From Candidatus Iainarchaeum sp. (GTDB lineage: Archaea > Iainarchaeota > Iainarchaeia > Iainarchaeales > JAZDEL01), in assembly GCA_043808785.1 (NCBI GenBank), contig JAZDEL010000002.1, positions 1 to 32,000 on the forward strand: DNA of 32,000 nt, given 5' to 3'. The number at the start of each line of letters is the position of its first letter. Positions within the stretch are counted from its first letter, which is position 1. The notes beneath the pieces are model-generated. The model was not told the origin of the DNA, made no database searches, and saw only the letters and a list, made by a program, of their open reading frames with translations. Of the stretch, positions 611 through 30,437 are shown piece after piece. The position numbers were made by a program, and so were the translations under genes.

Positions 611-846
611 TTTTACCGTTCAGATATATGCAAACCACGTATTTAATTGTTTCGCCTTCGGGTTTCGCCTTTGCCGCGGGCATGCAAGCCCGCAAAAAAA
701 CAAAAACCGCAAAAGCGCGACCTCAAAAAAAAACAAAAACCCCGAACCGCGAACCCGCGGTTGTTTTTGGTTTGTTTTTTATTTTCCGTTTTTGCGCTTC
801 GGTTTTGCGTTTCCAGCATATCCTGCGCAAAAGCCCAATTGAAACC

Positions 847-862
847 TTTTTATTATATAAAG
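847..862 (+). promoter_or_regulatory. TATA-like box for the 890-7249 surface-protein operon
   Basis: The sequence tttttattatataaag is centred about 35 nt upstream of the ATG at 890. It is the only strong A/T box in the 280-nt divergent intergenic region on this side. Confidence 0.5.
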
Positions 863-889
863 ATGCAATTATATGGAAAAAGGCCGGTT

Positions 890-1963
890 ATGATGAAAGC
901 AAAACCCTTCCTGCTCGCAGCGCTGCTGCTGGTTCTCCTCTGCACATCCATATATGCGGTTGTGCCGAATTACCTGCGCGTGCAGGGCAAGATTTCGGAT
1001 GCAAGCGCATACTTCACAGGGGCGCAGGATGTAGAATTCCGCATTTATTCAAGCGAGTCCGGCCCCAACGCATCATACCTCGAACAGCACACAGGCCTTA
1101 ACCCTGTGCCCTTTTCCAACGGCTGGTTTGACGTGAACCTCGGTTTGTTAACCCCCCTTGACCTGAACTTCCGCTCCTCGCAGTACACGCCCTCCCAATA
1201 TTACCTCGGAATAACGGTTGGAACCGACGGCGAAATGGCGCCCCGCCTCCCGATACGCTCCTCGCCCTTCTGCTTCTCAACAAACGCCGCATATGATTTG
1301 AACTGCACGAACTGCATAGAGGATGCGGACATAGCAAACAACCTCACAATCGTAACCCCGAACGACTTTAATGTCCTCGGCACCCTGGATGTTTACGACC
1401 TTAATGTGCGCACCCTTGCTGTCGGTTCCGCAAACCAGCCCTCAATCGCGGGCGACATCAATATTTCCGGCAACCTTGAAATCGCGCCAGGAAAGAAACT
1501 CGTGATGCCAGGCACGCCCTTCGTTTACTGGATAAGTGCGGCGGAATACACTACACAGGACACAAACAAGCGCGGCGACGGCTTCACCCGCACCTCCTCC
1601 TACCGCACAACGCGCGGCACAATAAAAATAAGGCTCCCGAGCATAGCAAGCAGGTTTAATTCGGATGTTTACTTCGAGGAAATTTCACTTTACTTCTCCG
1701 GCCTCAACGGCGCGGACGCGAACATAGGAAACATTGCCCTTGTGCAGAACAACATGGGTTCGGATGTGAACGGCACAACAACCGCGCTGCGTTACGAGCC
1801 GGACATAGCAAGCGGCACCTCGGTAGACCTGAACAGCACAAACCTCACAGGCATGCCCTATAAGATGCTCGAGTACCCTTACTCCCTGAATGTTTTCATG
1901 AATGTTTCCCCGGGGCAGCAGATAGACCTGCGGTATGTAAAACTGGAGTACAGGATAGGGTGA
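890..1963 (+). CDS. Secreted surface protein, paralog 1 of 3 (unnamed family)
   Basis: The supplied ORF (647-1963) is trimmed to the in-frame ATG at 890 (MMKAKPFLLAALLLVLLCTSIYA, a signal peptide). This gives 357 aa, close to the 365 and 370 aa of its paralogs. It shares with them the blocks VQGK(I/L), F(R/K)IY, H(T/D)G, NG(W/F/Y)F, LG..(T/N)P(L/I).(D)LNF, Y(Y/W)LG(I/V), EM(A/S)PR, C(T/S)(N/S)C, LTI(V/I/A)TPN, AGD(I/L/V)N and a C-terminal LEY(R/H)(I/L)G. Confidence 0.8.
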   Translation: MMKAKPFLLAALLLVLLCTSIYAVVPNYLRVQGKISDASAYFTGAQDVEFRIYSSESGPNASYLEQHTGLNPVPFSNGWFDVNLGLLTPLDLNFRSSQYTPSQYYLGITVGTDGEMAPRLPIRSSPFCFSTNAAYDLNCTNCIEDADIANNLTIVTPNDFNVLGTLDVYDLNVRTLAVGSANQPSIAGDINISGNLEIAPGKKLVMPGTPFVYWISAAEYTTQDTNKRGDGFTRTSSYRTTRGTIKIRLPSIASRFNSDVYFEEISLYFSGLNGADANIGNIALVQNNMGSDVNGTTTALRYEPDIASGTSVDLNSTNLTGMPYKMLEYPYSLNVFMNVSPGQQIDLRYVKLEYRIG

Positions 1964-1967
1964 AAAA

Positions 1968-3065
1968 ATGGGGAAGCAAAGAAGCAGGAGAGTTGCATTC
2001 GCCGCGCTTGCGGCAGCCCTTATCCTGCTCCTCCTCGCAATCTCCGCAAGCGGTTACATAAATTACATAACCGTGCAGGGCAAGCTGAAAAACGGCAGCG
2101 GCTCAGCATATCTCTCGGGCGATTACGGCATGGTTTTCAAAATCTACGCAAGCGAGAACGCCGTAACCCCGCTTTACACCGAATCCCACACAGGCGCGAA
2201 TGCAGTAACCGTGAAGGACGGCTTCTTCAGCGCATCCCTCGGCACAATAACGCCTTTGGACCTTAACTTCCTGCAGAACTACTGGCTGGGCATAACTGTC
2301 GGGGCGGACAGCGAGATGAGCCCCAGGCAGCCTTTCATCCCGCAGCCTTATTCGATGTCCTCGCAGGTTGCGCTGGACGTAACCTGCTCCTCATGCGCAG
2401 GCGATGCCGAGATCGCCAATGCCCTGACGATTATAACGCCCAATGATGTGAACATCCTCGGCAGGGCGAATATTTACGACCTCAACATCGGGCGCACGAT
2501 TTCAGCCGGGGGCGCAAGGGGCACCTCCGCGGGCGACCTTAACATAGGCTCCTACCTGCACCTTGCGAAAACCTCGAAATGCATAATCGGCAGGAACTCC
2601 GCTTCATTGAGTTCCCCGATGCACTTATGGCTCTCCGCGCCCGAAACCCTGAGCAGGAACTCAATTCCCCCGGGGGCGAATGTTTTCGAAACTTCGGTAG
2701 AGGCAACCTCGGACGCAAACCTCTACTTCGCATTCCCCGTGCCTCACGGCGAACTTGGCTCCTCCGCGATTCTCGACAGCATAACAATCCAGTACTACGG
2801 CGCAACAGCAACGGACTACATCGACAGCGTTTACATAGAGCGCATAAACACGGGCACAAGCCTGAGCCTCACGCCCGTGATGAGCTACCACCCGAACATA
2901 ACAAGCGGCACAAGCAAAACCATAACCTCCGCAGACACCCCGAACCTGCCGCTCACCCTCGCCTCTGGCACGCCTTATCTCATAACCGTAGGCGTGGATG
3001 TTTCCCCGGCAACGCCGCAGCCTGTAACCATACACGGCTTCAAACTGGAGTACCACTTAGGGTGA
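1968..3065 (+). CDS. Secreted surface protein, paralog 2 of 3
   Basis: It starts 4 nt after the paralog 1 stop, and an aggGTGA SD overlaps that stop. The N-terminus MGKQRSRRVAFAALAAALILLLLAISASG is a signal peptide. The same conserved blocks as paralog 1 are present. Confidence 0.85.
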   Translation: MGKQRSRRVAFAALAAALILLLLAISASGYINYITVQGKLKNGSGSAYLSGDYGMVFKIYASENAVTPLYTESHTGANAVTVKDGFFSASLGTITPLDLNFLQNYWLGITVGADSEMSPRQPFIPQPYSMSSQVALDVTCSSCAGDAEIANALTIITPNDVNILGRANIYDLNIGRTISAGGARGTSAGDLNIGSYLHLAKTSKCIIGRNSASLSSPMHLWLSAPETLSRNSIPPGANVFETSVEATSDANLYFAFPVPHGELGSSAILDSITIQYYGATATDYIDSVYIERINTGTSLSLTPVMSYHPNITSGTSKTITSADTPNLPLTLASGTPYLITVGVDVSPATPQPVTIHGFKLEYHLG

Positions 3066-3072
3066 TGTGTAA

Positions 3073-4185
3073 ATGGCATGGATGAAAAATAAGGGCGCAA
3101 TTTCCTGCAGGGCAATACTGCAGCCGCTCCTTGTGCTTGCCCTGCTTACCTTGCTCTCAATCCCCATCGCCGCATACATAGGCGAGATGAACGCGCAGGG
3201 CAGGCTCTCCAATTCAACAGGCTTTGTTACAGGCGATTACAACATCGCGTTCACGATTTACAATGCCGAATCAGGGGGAAGCGCGCTCTGGACCGAAATA
3301 CACGACGGCGCAAACAAGGTGGGCGTGAACAACGGCTATTTCAGCACAACCCTCGGAACAATTAACCCTATAGAGGACCTTAACTTCCTGCAGGATTACT
3401 GGCTCGGGGTTAATGTCGAAAACACCGGTTACATGAGCCCGAGGCACAGGTTAACCCCTCTCCCCGGCTGCTTCACCTCGGAAACGGCGCAGGACGTGAA
3501 CTGCTCCTCGTGCATCTCCGACAGCGACGCCGACAACAGCCTCACAATTGCAACCCCGAACCAGGTTACCCTGCTCGGTTCCTCAAACTTCAGGGACACG
3601 AATGCCGTGCACTCACTGCGCACAGGCTCTGCAGCACAGCCCGCATCCGCAGGCGACGTTAACCTCTCAGGCAACCTTGTTATGCAGGCAGGCCAGGAAA
3701 TTGTGATGCCTGACCCCGAGGCAAGCGGGGCCTCAAGCATCTTTGTGGAGGCGGTCACAAACCTCCCGCAGTCCTCGGACGTTAACGGCAACGGAATTTC
3801 AAGGTCTTCGGTATGGCTCACCTCAGGCGGCATACTCCAGCTCGGCATGCCTGTGCATACCCTTGAGTACGGCGCAACACCCGTAATTGACAGGATAAAT
3901 GTTTACGATTACAACATGGGTGCAACTTTCTATGTCGACACAGTGCGCATAGAGAGCGTTAACCCCGACACCGGCACGCCCACAGTGCGCGCGATTTACA
4001 CAACAGACCAGACAAGCGGCACGGAGATAAACATGACCTCCGTAAATACAACAGGCTTCCCTTACAAGATGGTGAACGCGCCGCACCGCCTTGCCCTCGA
4101 TTTCAATGTTGCCGACATTAACCCGCACAGGTTTTACGTTTATGGGTATGAAATTCAGTACCATCTCGCGTACACAAGCAGGTGA
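3073..4185 (+). CDS. Secreted surface protein, paralog 3 of 3
   Basis: It starts 7 nt after the paralog 2 stop, preceded by a GGTGAT SD at 3060-3065. A hydrophobic N-terminal signal is present, along with the same conserved blocks (AQGRL, FTIY, HDG, NGYF, LNFLQDYWLGV, MSPR, CSSC, LTIATPN, AGDVNLSGNL, IQYHL). Confidence 0.85.
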   Translation: MAWMKNKGAISCRAILQPLLVLALLTLLSIPIAAYIGEMNAQGRLSNSTGFVTGDYNIAFTIYNAESGGSALWTEIHDGANKVGVNNGYFSTTLGTINPIEDLNFLQDYWLGVNVENTGYMSPRHRLTPLPGCFTSETAQDVNCSSCISDSDADNSLTIATPNQVTLLGSSNFRDTNAVHSLRTGSAAQPASAGDVNLSGNLVMQAGQEIVMPDPEASGASSIFVEAVTNLPQSSDVNGNGISRSSVWLTSGGILQLGMPVHTLEYGATPVIDRINVYDYNMGATFYVDTVRIESVNPDTGTPTVRAIYTTDQTSGTEINMTSVNTTGFPYKMVNAPHRLALDFNVADINPHRFYVYGYEIQYHLAYTSR

Positions 4186-4192
4186 GTTTTGA

Positions 4193-7100
4193 ATGGGCGG
4201 AATAAGCAAAGTGTGTTTTGTGTTTTTCCCCCTTGCCGTGGCACTTGCCTGCGCCGCACATGCCTCGGTCATGGGCAGCACCAACTACACGATGGAAGCG
4301 GATGTTTTCGCAGGCGGAACCGCAAGCAGCGCAACAGGCTACGACCTCAACGCGTTTTCCGTCGGCGAATTGGTTGCAGGCAACGCCTCCTCAGGCAGGT
4401 ATTTTGCCTATGTCGGGTTCCTGGCAACAGGCGCGGAAAAATGCAACGGCTGGGACGACGACCAGGACGGGAGCATTGACGAGGGCCCGTGGCCCGCGGA
4501 AACCTGCGGCAACGGCGTAGATGATGATTGCGACGGCAGCATTGATGAAGGGGCGTGCGGCACTGTTGCCATTGGCGGCACCGACGGCACGGCTGTGCGC
4601 CCCGCCTCTGGCTGCACATATTCCTGCGCAGGGCAGGAGGTATGCCCTGGCACGGTTTACGCCACAAGCGCGGGCGAGGTTTGCTGCAGCAGGCTGTGCA
4701 TTCCGGCAAGGGACCTGAACTATGCTGATGTGGCAATTACCTCCATGGGGCTCTCAAAGCACAACGCAAGTTCGGGCGACCTTGTGGAGTTCACCATAAA
4801 AATAAGGAACCGCGGCTCCGCAGCCTCAGGAAAGTTTGAAATCGCATTTTACATCCTGCGCGAACCAACGCAGGGAACCGCGGCTTTTTCCCCTGCAGCA
4901 GGCAAGCAAGCATACGCGCTTTTCGCGGATGAAAGCGAATTGGCAACATGGTCCGAGTTCGCCAGGTTCGAGGTTAACTCCCTTGCCCCGGGTGCGGAAA
5001 CAACAATTTCCGCGTCTTTCGACACCACAGGCTACAGCGGAGTCCTCGACTTGGGCGTGATGCTCGATTCTGAAAACTCAATAAGGGAAATAGACGAGGT
5101 CAACAACTGGGCGGACGCAAGCCTTGCAATAAGCGGCGGAATTACGCACCCTGAAATCTGCGGCAACAACATTGACGACGACCAGGACGGAATGGTTGAC
5201 GAGGATTGCACCGAAATCTGCGGCAACCTTATCGATGACGACCTTGACGGCAGGGTAGACGAGGGCTGCACAATCATATGCGACGGCAACATCTCTGGCG
5301 TTCCTCCGCAGCGCGAACTCGAGTGTGCGGCAGGCGGTGAAAAGCGGGCTCTTTTCAGCGACAAATACGTGAACGGCTTCTGCCTCGGCGGATGTGAAAA
5401 AACCCTCACGATTTATGCCGACGGTTCGGTCGGATATATCGAGAACATGTACGGCAATGTAAAGGAAATGCACGCAACCCTTACCTCGCAGGAACTGCAG
5501 CGCTTCAAGAACACAGTTGAAAACAGCGGCTTCCTCGCTCTCGACAAGGATTATTACACCTGCAGGGGCGCGCCAACAGACGCAGGCTCGCACACCTATG
5601 AATACACCAGCGGCGGCACCATAAAGAAAGCGGGCTTCTACTCGGCATGCACCTCGGAAATAGACCTCTCATTCCCGCGCGCATTCGGCATCATAGGCGC
5701 GGAACTCGGCACAATAAGCGGCATGCTTGAGGGCGGCGCCGCGCCCTCTGGAACCTCCCTTGCGGATATTTACGCCTGCACCGCAGATGCGGACTGCACC
5801 AACATACAGGACGGCTGCTGCGACTGCAACTACGGCGGCAGGAACACATCCATAAACAGGCGCTATGTGCAGTGCTGGCTCGAACACCTCGAGCAGGAAT
5901 TCACCTGCAGCGAAGCATTTTGCATAACCATGCCTTCGCTTGACCCGAGCTGTTTTGCGCTTCCAAAATGCGTTAACGGCCTCTGCACGAACGCTTCAGG
6001 TGATGCATGCTCCCGCATCACGCCCGAAACCTGCGGCAACAACATAGATGACGACCTTGACGGAATGGTTGACGAGGATTGCACCGAGGTTTGCACGGAC
6101 GGCATAGACAACGACCTCGACGGCAGGATTGACGAGGGCTGCGGCGAAATCTGCGACGACCATATCGACAACGACCTCGACGGCCTTACGGATGAGGATT
6201 GCTACACAATGCCGGAAATCTGCGGGGACGGGATAGACAACGATTTTGACGGCAGGATAGATGAAGGGTGCGGCGAGATATGCGGCAACAACATAGATGA
6301 CGACCTCGACGGCCTCATTGATGAGGAGTGCTATGAACTGCAGGAAATCTGCGGCAACAACTTGGATGACGACCACGACGGACTTGTGGACGAGCCGCCC
6401 TGCACTGACGGCGTGCCGGACAGCGATGATGACGGCCTTACCGATGAAGTGGAGCGCGGCATAGGCTCCGACCCGTATAATCCCGACACAGACTCAGACA
6501 GCCTGCGCGACGGAAAGGAAATAAACGAAACAGACACTAGCCCCATACTTTTTGACACAGACGAGGATAATGTCGGGGACGGCCAGGAATTCCTGTACGA
6601 CATAACCGACCCGGTAGACCCTATGAGCAACCTGCTCGAGCTTGTGATGAAGCCCGATGTCCCGGTAGGCGGGCAGCAGGAAGTTGGGGTAAAGCACCCC
6701 GCACTTGGCCTTATCCAAGGCATTTCCGCGCAGGTTATTTCCCCGTCCGGCGCGAAGCAGGGCTTCACTGCAGCGGATTCCAAAATAACCTTCACTGTCA
6801 AGGAGGAGGGAGTTTACACAGTGCTTGTAAGCAAGAAGGCATATTCCGCATCTGGCACATTTAATGGCGTGGGCACAGGCCTTGCAATAGGCGGCTATGC
6901 AGGCGACCTTGCCTCGCTTATATTCGGCTCCTCCCTGTTTGAAAACCCGTTGCTTGTCCTGCTCCTCTGCGTACTTTCAATTGCAGCATGCATCCTAGCA
7001 TACAGGAACAGTGCGGTGCTTTTCCGCGGGCGCGGCATGCCGCTTGCGGAAACCGCGGAGAGGAGGGAGAAGCTCAAGCGCGCGGGGGTAGCGGTGTTGT

Positions 7101-7249
7101 TCTTCATCGTGCCGCTGCTCATAAACAGGTTCCTTGACACCGGCTTGGCAATCCTTTTCGCTGTGCTCGAGATAGCGGTGATTTACGCCGCAACCTATAT
7201 GCTGCGCGCAAAAACCCGCGCAATGGAAGAGAAGCCGATAAGGGTTTAA
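4193..7249 (+). CDS. Giant membrane-anchored surface protein with MopE-like Cys/Asp repeats, a CARDB-like domain and thrombospondin type 3-like Asp repeats
   Basis: An aggtga SD lies 7 nt upstream and the N-terminus is a signal peptide (VCFVFFPLAVALACAAHA). About 10 copies of C(G/T/D)(N/D)x(I/V/L)D(D/N)D(x)DGxxDE(x)C occur in three clusters (about 4440-4555, 5155-5270 and 6020-6405). This resembles the 'putative metal-binding motif' repeat of MopE-type proteins. A CARDB-like segment is present (DVAITSM...FTIKIRNRGSAASG...NSLAPGAETTI...EVNNWA). An Asp-rich DSDDDGLTDE...DPYNPDTDSDS...FDTDEDNVGDG run resembles TSP3 calcium-binding repeats. Three C-terminal hydrophobic helices follow. Confidence 0.85.
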   Translation: MGGISKVCFVFFPLAVALACAAHASVMGSTNYTMEADVFAGGTASSATGYDLNAFSVGELVAGNASSGRYFAYVGFLATGAEKCNGWDDDQDGSIDEGPWPAETCGNGVDDDCDGSIDEGACGTVAIGGTDGTAVRPASGCTYSCAGQEVCPGTVYATSAGEVCCSRLCIPARDLNYADVAITSMGLSKHNASSGDLVEFTIKIRNRGSAASGKFEIAFYILREPTQGTAAFSPAAGKQAYALFADESELATWSEFARFEVNSLAPGAETTISASFDTTGYSGVLDLGVMLDSENSIREIDEVNNWADASLAISGGITHPEICGNNIDDDQDGMVDEDCTEICGNLIDDDLDGRVDEGCTIICDGNISGVPPQRELECAAGGEKRALFSDKYVNGFCLGGCEKTLTIYADGSVGYIENMYGNVKEMHATLTSQELQRFKNTVENSGFLALDKDYYTCRGAPTDAGSHTYEYTSGGTIKKAGFYSACTSEIDLSFPRAFGIIGAELGTISGMLEGGAAPSGTSLADIYACTADADCTNIQDGCCDCNYGGRNTSINRRYVQCWLEHLEQEFTCSEAFCITMPSLDPSCFALPKCVNGLCTNASGDACSRITPETCGNNIDDDLDGMVDEDCTEVCTDGIDNDLDGRIDEGCGEICDDHIDNDLDGLTDEDCYTMPEICGDGIDNDFDGRIDEGCGEICGNNIDDDLDGLIDEECYELQEICGNNLDDDHDGLVDEPPCTDGVPDSDDDGLTDEVERGIGSDPYNPDTDSDSLRDGKEINETDTSPILFDTDEDNVGDGQEFLYDITDPVDPMSNLLELVMKPDVPVGGQQEVGVKHPALGLIQGISAQVISPSGAKQGFTAADSKITFTVKEEGVYTVLVSKKAYSASGTFNGVGTGLAIGGYAGDLASLIFGSSLFENPLLVLLLCVLSIAACILAYRNSAVLFRGRGMPLAETAERREKLKRAGVAVLFFIVPLLINRFLDTGLAILFAVLEIAVIYAATYMLRAKTRAMEEKPIRV

Positions 7250-10348: not shown

Positions 10349-10526
10349 TGCGACTGCCGGGAATCGAACCCGGGTCTGAACCTTGTTGCAAGAACCTCCT
10401 GTGAGGCTTCGGAACCGCAGGTTCCGCCGCCCTGCAGAACCCGCAAGGGTTCTGCCGCAAGGGAGGTATCGGAACCGTAGGTTCTGATGTGGCAAGGTCC
10501 AAGCCTAACCGCTAGCCTACAGTCGC
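10349..10526 (-). tRNA. tRNA-Gly (anticodon GCC) with a 106-nt intron at 37/38 (intron 10384-10489)
   Basis: The acceptor is GCGACTG/CAGTCGC plus A73, the D arm GGCT-AGCGGTTA-GGCT, the anticodon stem GGACC/GGTTC, the variable loop AGAC, and the T arm CCGGG-TTCGATT-CCCGG. The spliced loop is TTGCCAA. A 3' CAA bulge and a perfect 4-bp central helix UUGC/GCAA are present, and the 5' bulge is enlarged (relaxed BHB). The A/T box ttttaaaa at 10558-10565 lies about 32-39 nt upstream. Confidence 0.75.
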
Positions 10527-12676: not shown

Positions 12677-12749
12677 TGGGCCGGGGCGGAATCGGACCGC
12701 CGATTTCTGCCTTGTAAAGGCAGCGTCATAGCCGCTAGACCACCGGCCC
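12677..12749 (-). tRNA. tRNA-Val (anticodon TAC), intronless
   Basis: The minus strand reads GGGCCGG-TG-GTCTAGCGGCTATGAC-G-CTGCC-TTTACAA-GGCAG-AAATC-GGCGG-TCCGATT-CCGCC-CCGGCCC-A. This is a perfect 7-bp acceptor with anticodon loop TT-TAC-AA. No CCA is encoded. The TATA box tttaaa at 12777-12782 lies 28-33 nt upstream. Confidence 0.9.
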
Positions 12750-12900: not shown

Positions 12901-13329
12901 TTGAAAAAGGTGGTTTCTTTCTTCGGCAGGGGAAAAAATGTCCATCTCCCCAAGCTTATAGGCGCGTTCATACTTTTTGCGGCATTGCTGATGTTCATAA
13001 AGGTAAGCGCTGAAATGTTCGAATCCTGGGACAATGCAAAGGCGGTTAATGCCTGCCTTGCCGCGGCGGACGACGAAACAAAGTTCCTTTTCTGCTACAA
13101 TTACGCGAACGAATCATTAGGCGTCACCGTAAGGCCCGAACAGGATAAGCTCACCGGAAGGCAGTTCTGGCAGGTCCTCCTCGGGCCGGTGGTAAGCATG
13201 CTTATCTGGCTCGCGGTGCTCTTTGTGGGGTGGATGCTCTACAGGGCAAGCCATCTTGTCTTTTTCGTCGAGGAGCCCTCGGCAATGAGGGAGCGCTTTT
13301 CGGAGCATGCGTTCAAGAGGAAGAGGTAG
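12901..13329 (+). CDS. Small membrane protein, unknown function
   Basis: It starts at TTG, preceded by an aaaggtg SD-like motif, with the TATA-like box tttaaata at 12852-12859. Two hydrophobic helices are present (IGAFILFAALLMFI and VVSMLIWLAVLFVGWML). Confidence 0.55.
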   Translation: MKKVVSFFGRGKNVHLPKLIGAFILFAALLMFIKVSAEMFESWDNAKAVNACLAAADDETKFLFCYNYANESLGVTVRPEQDKLTGRQFWQVLLGPVVSMLIWLAVLFVGWMLYRASHLVFFVEEPSAMRERFSEHAFKRKR

Positions 13330-13451: not shown

Positions 13452-15335
13452 TTAGGCGCCGAGCGCCACAGCCTTAACCTTTTTAGTTCCCTCTACTTTC
13501 CCGCGTTTCATGCCGACGAGGTAGCCGACGCCTGACTCATCCGCCTTCGAAGCAAGGCGCTGCGTAACAATGCCGTCGAAAACAACAGCATGTACGCCCT
13601 TCTCGGTGCCGAGCTTCCCGATAAGTTCCTTGACATCGCATTCCCCGACTTGCTTCATCGCGCTGTCGAAGAGCCTTGCCTTGAAGCTTCCCGAAAGTTC
13701 CTTCATCACAGGAATGAACTGCGACTCTTCTTCCGCAGTGAGCCTCGGGCATGTTTCGCGCTTCTCGAATCCGCCTGCCCCTTCATCCCTGCCCCTTCCG
13801 AAGCTTGGGCGCGCTCCGCCCCTGCCCCTTCCTGGCCCGTCCCTTCCTGGGCCTGCCCTTGAACCGAATCCTCCGCGTTCACTGCGCCCTCCGAATCCGC
13901 CCTCCCTTCCGGAGCCGCGGCCGAAGCCCCCTCTCCTCGGGCCTGCCCTGCCCCCTCTTGGAGGCCCGCTGCGGGAACCGAAGCCCCTTGATGGGCTGCG
14001 CCTTTCCCTGCCGGAGTAAGCGGATTCTCCTGAAACCGCAGGCTTCTCCCCGCCGTTGCTCATGCTGTGCGCCTCCGCAACATCCTGAACATAGCCGGAG
14101 CTTTCTCCCGCACCCTTTGCGCCCGTGCCGTAATCATCGCGAGGCTCTCTCGGGGTGCCGTAGCCCCTGTCCCTGAAACCTCCCCTTGAGCCGAAGCCTC
14201 CTGCGCGCCTGTCAGGGTATCCTGAACTGCCGCGCATTCCGCCCCTGTCTCTTCCGGAATAGCCGCGCCCTGTCCCCGAAAAGCCCCTCCCTTCGGAACG
14301 CCCGCGCCTCGGTGCGTAATCGCCGCCACCTTCAGGAGTGCCCCTTCCGCCACCGCGGTAGCCGCGTTCGTCCCTGCCGCCGAAGCCTCCGCGTTCGTGG
14401 CGCCCTTCCCCTGCGGAATATCCGCCAGCGGAAACGCTCCTGATAATTGCTTCGCCAGAAACCTCGTGCCCCGTATCTGCAGTGATGTGTTCCCTCCCAT
14501 TGAAGCCGTGCCTGAAATCTTCCTCATCCGCGGGAACCCGCCTCTTGAGGGAAAGCAATATTTCTTTGCCTGTAAGCTCTTCCACTTCCTTCCCATCTGG
14601 CGCGCGCGCAACATATGCGACGCTCGCAATCTGCTTAAGCTTCCTCGCGTTCAGTTCCCCGCCCCTGTCGCCGTCCACAAACACGGTTAATTTCTTCCTC
14701 CTGCTTAATTGCACAACCACGGGGCTTATCTGCGAACCCCCCATTCCTATTGCGTTCTTTATACCGTTCTTCAGGAGGTTAAGCACGTCAGCCCTTCCCT
14801 CGACAACAATCAGCTCGTCGCTGTCGTCTATATCCGGGCCTGCAGGCACCTTGTCTTTTCCATACCCCACAATTTCAGCCTTGCGGGCGCTGCCCCTTAT
14901 CTCCTCAGTGAGTTCGTTGCTTTCTGGTATCTGCTCCTTCATCATCCTCTGCAGCAGCACCTTTGCGCGCTCCTTGATTATCTCGCGCTTCGCGCCCCTC
15001 ACATCCTCTATGTTCGTTATCTTGAACTCCGCATCGCACGGCCCCACCTTATCCACGGTTTCGATTCCCGCTGCAAGCGTGCTTGTCTGCACCATGTCCA
15101 TGCTGCTTGGGACAAGAATTTCGCCCTTTGTCCTGCCCATGCTGCTCTTTGAATTTATTTCAATCCTGCCGACCTTCCCGTTTTTCTGCAGTTCCTTGAG
15201 GTCCATCTCGTCCCCGAGCAGGCCCTCGCTCTGCCCGAAGATTGCGCCGATTATATCGGGCTTCTCCACAATGCCCGAAATAACGAAGTCTATATGTATC
15301 ATGTACTTGACCGTGTTCAAATAAGTTTTAGCCAT
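13452..15335 (-). CDS. dnaG: Archaeal DnaG (TOPRIM, exosome-associated) with a large internal RG/RGG-rich low-complexity insertion
   Basis: The N-terminal region is YMIHIDFVISGIVEKPDIIGAIFGQSEGLLG. The TOPRIM motifs are LIVVEGRADVLNLLKNGIKNAIGMGG and TVFVDGDRGGE. The C-terminal block is HAVVFDGIVTQRLASKADESGVGYLVG. A GGAGGA SD lies upstream. Residues about 296-525 are almost entirely G/R/S/F/E/P. Confidence 0.85.
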   Translation of the reverse strand: MAKTYLNTVKYMIHIDFVISGIVEKPDIIGAIFGQSEGLLGDEMDLKELQKNGKVGRIEINSKSSMGRTKGEILVPSSMDMVQTSTLAAGIETVDKVGPCDAEFKITNIEDVRGAKREIIKERAKVLLQRMMKEQIPESNELTEEIRGSARKAEIVGYGKDKVPAGPDIDDSDELIVVEGRADVLNLLKNGIKNAIGMGGSQISPVVVQLSRRKKLTVFVDGDRGGELNARKLKQIASVAYVARAPDGKEVEELTGKEILLSLKRRVPADEEDFRHGFNGREHITADTGHEVSGEAIIRSVSAGGYSAGEGRHERGGFGGRDERGYRGGGRGTPEGGGDYAPRRGRSEGRGFSGTGRGYSGRDRGGMRGSSGYPDRRAGGFGSRGGFRDRGYGTPREPRDDYGTGAKGAGESSGYVQDVAEAHSMSNGGEKPAVSGESAYSGRERRSPSRGFGSRSGPPRGGRAGPRRGGFGRGSGREGGFGGRSERGGFGSRAGPGRDGPGRGRGGARPSFGRGRDEGAGGFEKRETCPRLTAEEESQFIPVMKELSGSFKARLFDSAMKQVGECDVKELIGKLGTEKGVHAVVFDGIVTQRLASKADESGVGYLVGMKRGKVEGTKKVKAVALGA

Positions 15336-27185: not shown

Positions 27186-27372
27186 GCGGTTCAGCCTTTT
27201 CTTATAAAGAAACCCGTTTTGGGCTAAAGCCCAAAAGGGCCCTTTTGGCGCAAGCCAAAACGGGAGGCTGGCGAAAAGAACAGCCCGCCTCTAGGCGGGC
27301 ACTCGCAGTTTTCGCCAACCTTTTGGAAGTGGGTTTGAGCCCAAGCGAAAACCCACGCTCCGAAAAGGTTGC
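27186..27372. repeat. Mosaic palindromic repeat locus R6 (modules F, D, A, G)
   Basis: Module F lies at 27186-27201, the 18-nt palindrome at 27231-27248, and module A (gcccgcctctaggcgggcactcgcagttttcgcca) at 27283-27318. The segment cttttggaagtgg lies at 27320-27332. The hairpin gtgggtttgagcccaagcgaaaacccac follows. Confidence 0.85.
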
Positions 27373-27437
27373 ACCGGAAACGCACCCTCCCAACCTTTTT
27401 AAACCAGGTTCGGGCAATTGTTATTCGGTGCGCGCAA

Positions 27438-28529
27438 ATGGACCGAATTACGGGGATGATAAGCGAGGCTGTTTCGTACATAAATTCATATGAGGAACGC
27501 AAGCGCGAACTCGCGCGTGCGCTCGCGCCTTTGAAAAAACAAAAACTCGCGCTTTCTCAAGAGGTTCTTGAGGAAAAGCTTGTTTTTCCCGTGGGCAAGG
27601 CGGAATTAAACTTCCGCGCTGCGGGCGTTGATTCTGGTTTCATGGGGAGGCGCCTTTCCTCCGCCGACATAGTTCTTGTGCGTGCAGTTGGCACTGTTTT
27701 CGATTATGAGCGCGGAAAGCTTGCCCGCGCTTCTTATCACCCGAACTTCTTCTCCTTCCCCATGCCTCACCTTTCGAATAACGCGCTTGAGGAAGATGAA
27801 TATGGGTGCAGCATGGGGCTGATAAGGCTGCGCGAGGAAGTTAAAATCGCGCGCGAAATCCTTGAAAAACACAAGCCGCGCTATCTTTTCCTCGACGGCA
27901 GCATTGTCCCGCAATATGCCGACAAGCCGCGCTCGGATTCGGTTGTCAGGAACCTTTACCACGACCTTTTGCACAGTTTCCGGAGCCTTTACAGTGAGGC
28001 CGAGAAAAATGGGTGCACGCTCATTGCATGCATCGAGGATTCAAGGGGAAAGCGCATAAATGAAATACTGCGCGCGGAACTTAACGCCGATGAAAAATTA
28101 ACGCAGAACAGGAACATAGAGGGGATGTTCGACTGGGCAATTTTAGATTACCTCCTTGAAGTCGGGGAACGCACGCTGGCATTCCCCTACAGCGCGAACA
28201 TACGCAAGCACCCAATCCTGACAGACATGGGCGAGTGGAGCGGCAGCATTTACGGCATGTACCTGCGCCCCGCGCAGTACGACAGGCCCCTGCGTTTGGA
28301 GTTCCTTTGCAAAAACGGAAAAATAGGCGAACGCGCGGACGAGGTTGCGTCCGCAGCCTGCTCGCTCGCGGGCATGCACCGCGAATACGCTTACCCCTCC
28401 GTGCTGATAGAGGCGGATTTGAAGGCGCGCCTCAGGCCCGATGAAATCGATTTGGTTTTCGGGAAAATCTTCGACAAGCTGGGAAAGAATGTGCGCCTCA
28501 GGCTCAGGCGCGAAAGCAGACCGTTTTAA
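27438..28529 (+). CDS. nurA: NurA 5'-3' nuclease
   Basis: The supplied ORF is trimmed to the ATG at 27438, because the upstream codons lie in repeat locus R6 and a ctttttaaa box lies at 27392-27402. NurA-style blocks are AAGVDSGF...ADIVLVRAVG and RYLFLDGSIVPQY. The gene sits directly upstream of herA. Confidence 0.75.
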   Translation: MDRITGMISEAVSYINSYEERKRELARALAPLKKQKLALSQEVLEEKLVFPVGKAELNFRAAGVDSGFMGRRLSSADIVLVRAVGTVFDYERGKLARASYHPNFFSFPMPHLSNNALEEDEYGCSMGLIRLREEVKIAREILEKHKPRYLFLDGSIVPQYADKPRSDSVVRNLYHDLLHSFRSLYSEAEKNGCTLIACIEDSRGKRINEILRAELNADEKLTQNRNIEGMFDWAILDYLLEVGERTLAFPYSANIRKHPILTDMGEWSGSIYGMYLRPAQYDRPLRLEFLCKNGKIGERADEVASAACSLAGMHREYAYPSVLIEADLKARLRPDEIDLVFGKIFDKLGKNVRLRLRRESRPF

Positions 28530-28555
28530 TTGGGGTTTGTTGGTTTATTTGTATT

Positions 28556-28843
28556 GTGGTGGCTGTGATGCAAAAAAACAAAAAACCCGTACGCATGGTT
28601 CATGGCGGCGGGGTTCACCCGCGCGAGATTCATTCGCGCGGGCAGGGGATGTTCTGCCCCAACTGCGGCTCCGCGGACCTGAAAATGGTGCAAACCCCCG
28701 TGTTTGTGCAGTCGGGCACTTTTCGGATGTACAAGTGCGGGAACTGCGGTTACGAGGGGCCGATAGTAATCGGCGGCCTCGGCATGCAGAAAGGGCTGAT
28801 GAAAAATTATTCGGAAAGGAAGGGGCGTGGATTGGATGGATGA
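28556..28843 (+). CDS. Small zinc-ribbon protein between nurA and herA
   Basis: Two Cys pairs form a four-Cys ribbon (CPNCGSADL...YKCGNCGYEG). It starts at GTG 28556 or ATG 28568 and overlaps the herA start by 17 nt. Confidence 0.55.
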   Translation: MVAVMQKNKKPVRMVHGGGVHPREIHSRGQGMFCPNCGSADLKMVQTPVFVQSGTFRMYKCGNCGYEGPIVIGGLGMQKGLMKNYSERKGRGLDG

Positions 28844-30437
28844 TGGGCTGCATAGGGCTGCAGAAGGCGGGCACACGACTGAACCGAAAACCCGCGAACC
28901 TGGCGCCGCGGAAGAGCTGGGCACGGTTATAAGCACAATGGACTCCCCCTCGCCGAGCGCCCTCTCGTTTGTCGTCACGAACGGAAAGGCGCACCGCGGC
29001 GAATTCGTTGAAATGGATTATGAGGAGGGCACGCTGATTGCGCTCATCACAAACGTTGTGAAAACAAACCGCTATTTCGAGCGCGCGGATTCGGTTAAGG
29101 AATTCGAGAGCAACGGCAGGAAAATGTTCGAGCATTTCCCGACATCGGAATGGGAATACCTTGTTGCGCAAACCCGCCCTTTGGGCGCTTATTCGGAAGG
29201 CAGGGTCACGCGCGCATCTTTTCCGCCAAGCCCGGGCACAAAGGTGCGCATTGCCTCCGCGGAAAGCCTCAGGAACTTCCTGCATTTCGATGACAAAGGC
29301 CTGCACATGGGCGAGATAGAGCACCCGCGTGTTGACGTTAAGTTGAACCTGACAAAGCTGCTGCAGAAGCACCTCTCAATCCTTGCCCAGAGCGGCGCGG
29401 GGAAAAGTTACACAGTATCGTGCTTACTCGAGGAACTCCTCGACCGCAGGAAAGAACATGGGAGGGTTGCCGTTGTCGTCCTCGACCCGCACGGCGAATA
29501 CAGTTGCTTTGCGGAACCCTGCACAGATAAGGGGCACACTGATTATTCCTCCCGCACGCGGCTTGTGCGCGCGCGCGACATAAAAATCGGGGTGCCGAAA
29601 CTCACCGCGGGAATTATCGCGGGAATGACTCCCGACATAACAAGCATACAGAAGCGCCATTTGGAAAAGGCGCTCAATGCTTTGCGCGCTAAAATGAAGT
29701 CAGGCGAGGGGCCTTTCGATTTCGGGGATGTGAAAAGGGAACTGAACAGAGACGAGGAACTCAAGGATAATGTTCGCGCCCCGCTCGTAGCAAGGCTTTC
29801 TTCGCTCGAGGATTTGCGCATTTTCGGCAGGACTGACAATCCGAGCCTCACGGATTTGGTGAAGCCCGGCATGTTAACAATCATTGACCTCGGCGATTTG
29901 ACAGACCTGATAAAAAAGCAGATTATAGTGAGTTATTTCGCGCAGAAGCTTTTCCGCGAGCGCAGGGCAAAAACCGTCCCTCCCTTCCTGCTCGTCATAG
30001 AGGAGGCGCACCAGTTCGCGCCCGAAAAAGTGCGGCACGAGGGGGCGATTTCAAAAAGCATAATCCGCACAATCGCGAGGGAGGGGAGAAAATTCGGCGC
30101 CGCCCTTTGCTTGGTTTCCCAGAGGCCCGTGCATTTGGACACAACAGTTCTTAGCCAGTGCAACACCCACCTCATACTTCGCGTAACAAACCCTTACGAT
30201 TTGGACCACATAGGGAAAAGTTCCGAGGGCATAGACAGGGCAAGCCAGGATATGATTACCTCGCTGCGCGTGGGGGAAGCGTTGCTTGTAGGGGAAGCGG
30301 TTAACAACCCGATATTCTTCCGCGTGCGCAAGCGCAGGTCCGCGCCCTCGAAGCACGAGGTTCCTTTGGAGGAAACGGCAAGGCTTTACGAGGAGAACAG
30401 GGAGCAGGCGAAAGAAGAGGCGGAAGAATTTTTGTGA
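28827..30437 (+). CDS. herA: HerA-type hexameric ATPase/helicase
   Basis: The N-terminal barrel-like region is LSFVVTNGKAHRGEFVEMDYEEGTLIALITNV. Walker A is ILAQSGAGKSYT and Walker B is FLLVIEEAHQF. The downstream block LVSQRP...THLILRV is typical of the HerA/FtsK-like clade. Confidence 0.85.
   Translation: MDWMDDGLHRAAEGGHTTEPKTREPGAAEELGTVISTMDSPSPSALSFVVTNGKAHRGEFVEMDYEEGTLIALITNVVKTNRYFERADSVKEFESNGRKMFEHFPTSEWEYLVAQTRPLGAYSEGRVTRASFPPSPGTKVRIASAESLRNFLHFDDKGLHMGEIEHPRVDVKLNLTKLLQKHLSILAQSGAGKSYTVSCLLEELLDRRKEHGRVAVVVLDPHGEYSCFAEPCTDKGHTDYSSRTRLVRARDIKIGVPKLTAGIIAGMTPDITSIQKRHLEKALNALRAKMKSGEGPFDFGDVKRELNRDEELKDNVRAPLVARLSSLEDLRIFGRTDNPSLTDLVKPGMLTIIDLGDLTDLIKKQIIVSYFAQKLFRERRAKTVPPFLLVIEEAHQFAPEKVRHEGAISKSIIRTIAREGRKFGAALCLVSQRPVHLDTTVLSQCNTHLILRVTNPYDLDHIGKSSEGIDRASQDMITSLRVGEALLVGEAVNNPIFFRVRKRRSAPSKHEVPLEETARLYEENREQAKEEAEEFL

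Follow-up and report, generated by a model that had tools for sequence, protein, structure and literature searches.

The window considered here, the whole analyzed stretch of 32,000 nucleotides, comprises positions 1 to 32,000 of contig JAZDEL010000002.1 in the Candidatus Iainarchaeum sp. assembly GCA_043808785.1. On its minus strand lies a dnaG gene whose product is archaeal DnaG, as had been proposed in an earlier reading made from the DNA letters alone (the sequence-only reading). The NCBIfam equivalog NF003108 (“DNA primase DnaG”) matches at 435.1 bits against a cutoff of 300, Pfam recognizes Toprim, and the protein is 100% identical to P0001, an NCBI protein from a metagenome-assembled genome (MAG) annotated as “DNA primase DnaG [Candidatus Diapherotrites archaeon]” and encoded on a contig of 269,610 bp. 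The subject of this analysis is the long low-complexity segment, rich in RG and FG, that joins the TOPRIM domain of this protein to its C-terminal domain (CTD). This segment is an extreme RG/FG-rich form of a linker that is hypervariable in nearly all archaeal DnaGs, and not a unique eukaryote-like insertion. The gene and its parts are listed below, with amino acid (aa) positions and, where given, the predicted local distance difference test (pLDDT) score of AlphaFold2.

13452..15335, minus strand: complete archaeal DnaG gene, 627 codons plus stop, a single uninterrupted open reading frame (ORF)
14523..15335, minus strand: N-terminal RNA-binding domain and TOPRIM, aa 1-271 (NF003108, Pfam; pLDDT mostly >90)
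14424..14522, minus strand: linker lead-in, aa 272-304, not RG-rich, net charge -3 (pLDDT <50 from aa 276; composition)
14142..14423, minus strand: RG/FG-rich block 1, aa 305-398, with 20 R, 33 G and 10 F/Y, net charge +9 (pLDDT 34-41)
14016..14141, minus strand: spacer without any RG, rich in G/S/A/E, aa 399-440, net charge -4 (composition; relative L081)
13776..14015, minus strand: RG/FG-rich block 2, aa 441-520, with 20 R and 29 G, net charge +14, repeated [RE]GGFG[GS]R (composition; relative L081)
13737..13775, minus strand: linker lead-out, aa 521-533, AGGFEKRETCPRL (rising pLDDT, mean 59 over aa 521-530; conserved in L081)
13452..13736, minus strand: conserved CTD, aa 534-627, with the VVFDGIVTQRL cluster (pLDDT 95-98, alpha/beta fold)

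The folded parts follow the same three-module plan as the rest of the archaeal DnaG family, for example the Sulfolobus solfataricus protein: a conserved N-terminal domain (NTD), then TOPRIM bearing E179 and D221xD223, and last a CTD that carries a conserved FDG...RL cluster. The NF003108 match is split into two stretches by the linker, profile positions 1-262 falling on aa 10-271, and the Pfam families Toprim_4, Toprim_2 and Toprim cover aa 173-253 (window positions 14577-14819). The TOPRIM acidic residues E179 and D221-G222-D223 are invariant across 88 homologs, as are D587 and G588 in the CTD, where T591-L594 are nearly invariant. The domains on either side of TOPRIM, aa 1-170 and aa 534-627, show sequence conservation and confident folding, as expected of an archaeal DnaG. 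The VVFDGIVTQRL cluster probably corresponds to the F360-D367 cluster of S. solfataricus. Searches of the PDB by sequence and by fold returned no structure of an archaeal DnaG or of a DnaG-exosome complex, and the only matches (by Foldseek for the TOPRIM fold) were bacterial DnaG and the RNase M5 TOPRIM. The NF003108 profile has 419 positions against the 627 residues found here, the excess being the RG/FG-rich disordered linker of about 250 aa. The C-terminal part has been described as the least conserved portion of archaeal DnaG (PMC4227792).

Alignment of the flanking domains to the profile, together with structure prediction, places the linker at aa ~272-533 (window positions 13737-14522). 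The sequence-only reading had assigned the RG/FG-rich run to 13760-14450, between TOPRIM and a conserved C-terminal block; the run is indeed there, and those coordinates (aa 296-526) are slightly narrower than the full linker. All of the peptides quoted in that reading occur in the protein: three in the linker, GGFGGRDERGYRGGGRG (aa 316-332), GGFGSRGGFRDRGYG (aa 379-393) and RGFGSRSG...GRGRDEG (aa 450-519), and one in the CTD, HAVVFDGIVTQRL (aa 582-594). The long antisense ORFs that it mentioned also exist, on the plus strand at 13570-14019, 13751-14176 and 14186-14443, and occur because the linker codons GGN, CGC and AGG have reverse complements that cannot form stops. As delimited by hidden Markov model flanks (258 aa), the linker consists of 30% G and 17% R, compared with 10% and 5% in the remaining protein, for a combined G+R content of 47%, and contains 37 RG/GR and 12 RGG/GGR. 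The other proteins of the window together hold 7 RGG/GGR in 6,344 aa, and their composition would predict 0.22 for the linker; thus the RG-rich linker is real and far beyond chance. No comparable RG-rich stretch occurs in any other genuine coding frame of the window. The linker has 46 R and 21 F/Y amid G/S spacers, and its net charge is +17 over 262 aa (+0.06 per residue), with 12% acidic residues. AlphaFold2, run on an alignment of 88 sequences, gives pLDDT <50 and DSSP coil throughout for aa 276-523, flanked by values >90 for aa ~5-268 (NTD-TOPRIM) and aa 534-627 (CTD). The segment is therefore predicted to be an intrinsically disordered low-complexity linker between folded domains.

The resemblance of this linker to RGG or glycine-arginine-rich (GAR) boxes was assessed with the Thandapani spacing classes (0-4 residues) as quoted in PMC9957100. 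Neither tri-RGG nor di-RGG, RGG(X0-4)RGG, has a match in the linker, the nearest pair (RGG460/RGG468) lying 5 residues apart, while tri-RG, RG(X0-4)RG(X0-4)RG, matches once, at RGYRGGGRG in block 1 (aa 324-332). A more relaxed, re-implemented pattern of the GAR-finder type yields five separate runs of 2-5 RG/RGG units, and the linker contains no long GAR of the fibrillarin type (>10 contiguous RG/RGG units). The significance of motif order was judged by composition-preserving shuffles. Over the whole linker there is a modest excess of RG/GR (37 vs. 27 ± 4 in shuffles, P = 0.012), and within each RG block neither RG nor RGG counts exceed the shuffles (P 0.1-0.4). RGG enrichment as a motif-level signal inside the blocks was rejected, the counts being those expected from composition. 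Adjacency of aromatic residues and glycine, [FY]G/G[FY], is by contrast roughly doubled (25 vs. 12.3 ± 2.9 in shuffles, P < 5e-5), is significant in both blocks, and reflects a recurring unit, [RE]GGFG[GS]R, at aa ~315, 378, 449, 468, 478 and 487, along with RGY and GYS. To describe the segment as an RGG/GAR box is thus an overstatement: it has one tri-RG and the GFG/GYG enrichment, but fails on the RGG classes and on RG/RGG counts within the blocks. The GAR-like look is grounded in chemistry, neither in homology nor in formal motif classes.

To place this linker within the family, four sets of DnaG proteins were compiled: the 118 nearest homologs; 74 proteins, out of 80 loci, of GTDB species representatives; the best 150 among proteins representing clusters at 50% identity; and 70 from JGI/ENA metagenomes. 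DnaG clusters matching at E ≤ 1e-30 number ~535. Pooling gave 240 proteins with both flanks, a sample biased toward relatives of the query, so that the fractions given here are not archaea-wide frequencies. Linker length ranges from 0 to 361 aa (median 91.5, interquartile range 68-117), reaching at least 100 aa in 101 of the 240 and at least 200 aa in 8. The comparison speaks for the expansion of a generally hypervariable linker, and not for a separate insert in a protein that is constant elsewhere. What is distinctive in the query is its glycine content, length and RG density: it ranks third of 240 in length and in G+R fraction, leads in RGG (8) and shares the lead in RG (19). Its charge per residue (+0.062) is ordinary against a median of +0.076. 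Among the 220 linkers of at least 30 aa, 188 carry a net positive charge, and the median R+K content is 22%. The chemistry behind these figures differs widely among lineages. Linkers of Methanosarcina DnaGs are rich in K/E/R and ~140-160 aa long, some of those in Micrarchaeota are rich in Q/N/S and extend up to 226 aa, those of Thermoplasmata carry PEPR repeats, linkers in some clusters are strongly acidic, and RS-rich ones also occur; most linkers in Iainarchaeia and Micrarchaeota are R-rich. In the Methanosarcina-type loci (L036, L042, L044, L046, L060, L113-L151) the start of the linker is a shared, conserved basic segment (…RKIRAPE.VPRIAEKKLHKRVKVHRVS…), so that in this genus some of what is counted as linker resembles a conserved motif, not unconstrained low-complexity sequence. 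Five loci of the GTDB set (L010, L011, L015, L038, L074) have a DPANN-type dnaG on MAGs labeled Chloroflexi/Chloroflexota, Falkowbacteria, Saccharimonadales or “bacterium”, and are most likely mis-binned archaeal contigs.

Linkers approaching that of the query are found in several places. G+R content of at least 40% in a linker of at least 50 aa was found in 19 of the 240 proteins. Within the Iainarchaeia, P0003 has a linker of 236 aa with 19 RG and with ERREGFGG and DRGRGFGG units, and P0057 has a similar RG-rich linker. P0133 contains a contiguous GAR motif of 13 units and is a more classical GAR than the query. The linker of P0154 has ERGGGGRGRE repeats. The DnaGs closest to P0154 and P0175 come from Thermoplasmata (~70% core identity), whereas the query is closest to Iainarchaeum. 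All five share with the query the position of the linker, a disorder-type composition and RG/GFG units, but their linkers cannot be aligned with that of the query, are more acidic (as in the ERREGFGG polyampholytes of P0003) or shorter, and belong to separate lineages of origin. Since their nearest groups differ, RG-rich linkers must have arisen more than once, in Iainarchaeia, in Thermoplasmata-like archaea and in another DPANN lineage. The expectation that comparable inserts would not prove common in archaeal DnaG has accordingly to be given up in part, in view of the 19 proteins, the independent RGG-rich lineages and P0133. In 491 kb of DNA flanking dnaG in 80 GTDB genomes, 21 stretches outside DnaG ORFs were flagged, 16 of them in three Thermoplasmata loci; they are R-rich, unlike the RG/GFG repeats, and are presumed to be non-coding frames, in a sample too small to represent whole proteomes.

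Low complexity and higher G+C (64% in the linker DNA vs. ~52% in the window) can in principle confuse assemblers, and a segment of this kind could be an assembly, frameshift or chimeric artefact, or else a foreign insertion such as an intein, mobile element or fragment of eukaryotic origin. Either origin is very improbable here. The 627 codons are continuous, with conserved domains on both sides, and the claim of an unbroken frame free of frameshift artefacts is confirmed by these flanks, by a relative and by the repeat and codon analyses described next. Tandem Repeats Finder detects a single degenerate array in the linker DNA (15 nt x 2.7 copies at 13820-13860), and direct repeats are of at most 29 nt with 70-89% identity, none long or perfect; collapse or expansion by an assembler is therefore unlikely, and an origin of the segment by tandem-repeat slippage or by assembly artefact was rejected on this array and the degenerate direct repeats. 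When the linker alone was searched against 5.8 billion proteins, the single match was P0268, a DnaG fragment of a close relative in the Logan assembly SRR22387960, and no eukaryotic GAR protein or member of another archaeal family was among the matches. The 1.5-kb contig of P0268, L081, is open to the contig edge, aligns to aa 395-627 of the query, and in this independent assembly carries the homologous spacer, RG block 2 and the syntenic downstream gene of 142 aa. Comparable linkers recur in many further independent assemblies, that of P0057, for example, on 10 contigs from NCBI, JGI, ENA and Logan. A foreign source is opposed by the codon usage, the linker having the same preferences for Arg (AGG/CGC) and Gly (GGC) as the remainder of the gene, and by Pfam, which reports Toprim families and neither an intein nor any other domain at E ≤ 0.1. 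The linker is not an artefact. The label “eukaryote-like” thus holds for composition and for GGFGGR units resembling those of the fibrillarin GAR domain, and does not hold for descent, given the native codons and a search of 5.8 billion proteins in which the DnaG of one close relative was the sole detectable homolog.

Beyond dnaG, the window contains the genes listed below; several of its ORFs have no Pfam match.

Proteins of the window identified by Pfam: thymidylate kinase, transglutaminase-like protein, ACT-domain protein, YggU/DUF167, Hjc resolvase, GTPase, PIN, NurA, HerA and Fic
12677-12749, minus strand: tRNA-Val (anticodon TAC; ARAGORN and Rfam), ~700 bp downstream of dnaG
12901-13329, plus strand: ORF of 142 aa with a hydrophobic N-terminal stretch and no Pfam match, between dnaG and tRNA-Val

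The ORF of 142 aa lies immediately downstream of dnaG in convergent orientation, and its position is kept in the close relative (L081, 798-1226). A second tRNA is reported by Rfam at 10349-10526 on the minus strand, where the full model (positions 1-71) scores 41.5 bits spread over 178 nt and ARAGORN finds none. A full tRNA model over 178 nt implies an intron of ~105 nt, and this is probably an intron-containing archaeal tRNA. Four large co-directional ORFs occupy 647-7249 of the plus strand, three of them (438, 365 and 370 aa) without Pfam match and followed by a protein of 1018 aa with CARDB, a MopE-like metal-binding motif and DUF6438; these may form a cell-surface gene cluster. At 27369-30437 on the plus strand, a gene for the NurA nuclease (386 aa) precedes one for the HerA helicase (536 aa; DUF87 and HAS-barrel). 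NurA and HerA are the DNA end-resection pair of archaea, and neither Mre11 nor Rad50 was seen among the scanned ORFs of the window. Cumulative GC skew over window positions 1-32000 declines near-monotonically as far as ~28,000 and climbs from -7.38 to -6.99 thereafter; this turn may mirror the change from mostly minus-strand to plus-strand genes. Among the 30 ORFs scanned against Pfam in the 32-kb window, none encodes an exosome subunit and none has a methyltransferase domain, that of an arginine methyltransferase included. In the literature on protein arginine methyltransferases, PMC7743719 makes no mention of archaea or of prokaryotes.

Two kinds of known system offer a comparison. The RGG/GAR domains of eukaryotic proteins (fibrillarin, GAR1, nucleolin, hnRNP U, FUS, LAF-1, DDX4) share with the DnaG linker richness in G and R, disorder, interspersed F/Y (GGFGGR), and a place in an RNA-binding protein that belongs to RNA-processing machinery. 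The GAR domain of fibrillarin is N-terminal and interspersed with phenylalanine (PMC9957100). It has more than 10 contiguous units, whereas the DnaG linker is internal, between folded domains, with a longest run of 5 RG/RGG units; the linker further differs from eukaryotic domains of this type in the absence of tri-RGG and di-RGG, in its 12% acidic residues and low charge per residue (+0.06), and in having no sequence homology to them. The second comparison is with the atypical Rho proteins of bacteria (Mycobacterium tuberculosis, M. luteus, Bacteroides), in which a conserved prokaryotic RNA-binding protein likewise contains a lineage-specific, hypervariable, disordered insertion of biased composition (R, G, D, N), up to a few hundred residues long and not modeled by AlphaFold. 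In M. tuberculosis and M. luteus this arginine-rich insertion makes for tighter RNA binding; that of B. thetaiotaomicron undergoes phase separation (PMC11347177). The DnaG linker fits the description of a lineage-specific, hypervariable, disordered, R-enriched insertion of this type, by analogy only, for Rho differs in protein family, domain of life and position of the insertion, and the functional data are for Rho.

In S. solfataricus, the NTD of DnaG is an RNA-binding domain that cooperates with TOPRIM, and the CTD is required for binding to the Csl4-exosome (PMC4227792). The CTD is also better conserved in archaea that have an exosome (PMC4227792), and DPANN Cluster 1, which includes Diapherotrites, keeps Csl4, Rrp4, Rrp41 and Rrp42 (PMC7414124). 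With RNA bound by the NTD and TOPRIM and the exosome docked by the CTD, the linker joins an RNA-capturing module to a docking module. The linker described here is the expanded form of a disordered, usually basic link between the two. In this lineage of Iainarchaeia (Diapherotrites) it grew to ~250 aa, probably via repeated duplication and divergence of short units rich in G/R/F ([RE]GGFG[GS]R), giving rise to two RG/FG-rich blocks flanking a neutral spacer. As a long flexible tether, it could let NTD-TOPRIM explore a wide space about the exosome cap. It could also offer RNA an auxiliary surface without sequence specificity, making contact through arginine-phosphate interactions and the stacking of arginine and aromatic residues, and so raise avidity for substrates such as rRNA and A-rich tails. 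A basic linker is the rule in archaeal DnaG (188 of the 220 linkers of at least 30 aa are net positive), in keeping with this account. We infer the binding of RNA by the linker, its role as a tether and the association with the exosome in this organism, and lean slightly toward the view that selection maintains the region as a flexible tether that also helps to bind RNA non-specifically.

On a competing account the linker is tolerated as a spacer and performs no function itself: it would be left over from repeat expansion in a region where disorder or connectivity alone counts, and its RG richness would reflect mutational and compositional drift. This is rather unlikely, although a number of observations agree with it and weigh against a selected, RNA-binding tether. 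DnaGs with linkers of 0-15 aa exist, and so a long linker is dispensable for core function; across the range of 0-361 aa, linkers are acidic, K-rich or K/E-rich, Q/N-rich, RS-rich or RG-rich, so that there is no universal chemical requirement. R-G adjacency inside the RG blocks is explained by composition, RG and RGG counts being no higher than in shuffles, and the modest net charge (+17 over 262 aa, with 12% acidic residues) is far from that of a classical, highly basic GAR domain. In P0007, the closest relative with a full core (81% core identity, partial protein), the linker is entirely different and unrelated, consisting of near-perfect tandem copies of GSDRRDSRPSYG that reach the end of the partial record; linker sequence is thus replaced at slightly larger distances. 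The linker of P0007 is a recent repeat expansion, at this same position but of another unit, and shows how such linkers arise. A homolog of the query linker is known from one close relative only among 5.8 billion proteins. A scan of metagenomes for exact peptides found no further close relatives that would cover block 1, and one seeded with an alignment found 80 DnaG loci, none closer than 69%.

Against a spacer without function stands the comparison with L081. Over 119 aligned codons of the linker (aa 395-523) dN is 0.116 and dS 0.91, for a ratio of nonsynonymous to synonymous substitution (dN/dS) of 0.13, compared with 0.09 in the 94 codons of the CTD; these values come from a single pair with dS near saturation and from a low-complexity alignment that covers aa 395-523 only and leaves block 1 outside, which lessens their weight in favor of a selected tether. 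Amino acid identity to L081 amounts to 87% in aa 395-440 and 88% in the CTD; RG block 2, whose alignment has 10 indel columns, reaches 82%. At this timescale, indels aside, the linker is conserved almost like a folded domain, and the substitution pattern indicates that it is maintained by purifying selection. The strongly non-random adjacency of aromatic residues and glycine, the net positive charge kept in 188 of 220 linkers despite turnover, and the lack of a recent slippage signature in the DNA likewise speak against drift alone. A bolder proposal makes the RG/FG-rich region a scaffold for phase separation, forming RNA-dependent condensates of the exosome and its substrates that are perhaps tuned by arginine methylation. 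Models for such condensates are the disordered region of RNase E in the BR-bodies of bacteria and the RGG domains in eukaryotic granules. The composition is of the sticker-and-spacer kind (46 R and 21 F/Y in G/S spacers), arranged in two blocks with disorder predicted in full, and the region is under purifying selection. The Rho insertion of B. thetaiotaomicron provides a prokaryotic disordered insertion able to phase-separate (PMC11347177), yet phase separation in archaea is barely documented, Cren7 being the sole archaeal example named in PMC12532770. The 12% of acidic residues reduce net charge, and RG/FG chemistry is missing from most DnaG linkers, so that condensate formation would be a lineage-specific property. 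Tuning by methylation has no counterpart in the window, where none of the scanned ORFs encodes an arginine methyltransferase. Altogether a condensate scaffold is an improbable explanation of the linker, and a similarly small chance attaches to its wider form, in which this DPANN DnaG would scaffold a membrane-less exosome “degradation body”, an independently evolved counterpart of BR-bodies and RGG granules that is possibly regulated by arginine modification.

Among the subunits of the archaeal exosome, DnaG is to our knowledge the one that is understood least. The retrieved papers combining archaea, DnaG and RGG, as represented mostly by their titles and abstracts, describe no linker of the present kind, nor do they discuss the general feature that emerges from this comparison, namely that TOPRIM and CTD are joined by a disordered linker, hypervariable and in most cases basic. 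In certain lineages it has turned into a long RG/FG-rich region chemically like the GAR domains of eukaryotes. Should such linkers serve as tethers only, the finding describes the variability of DnaG and goes no further. If they add RNA affinity or promote condensation, they would constitute a simple, independently evolved archaeal parallel to the use of RGG regions in the RNA-processing machines of eukaryotes.

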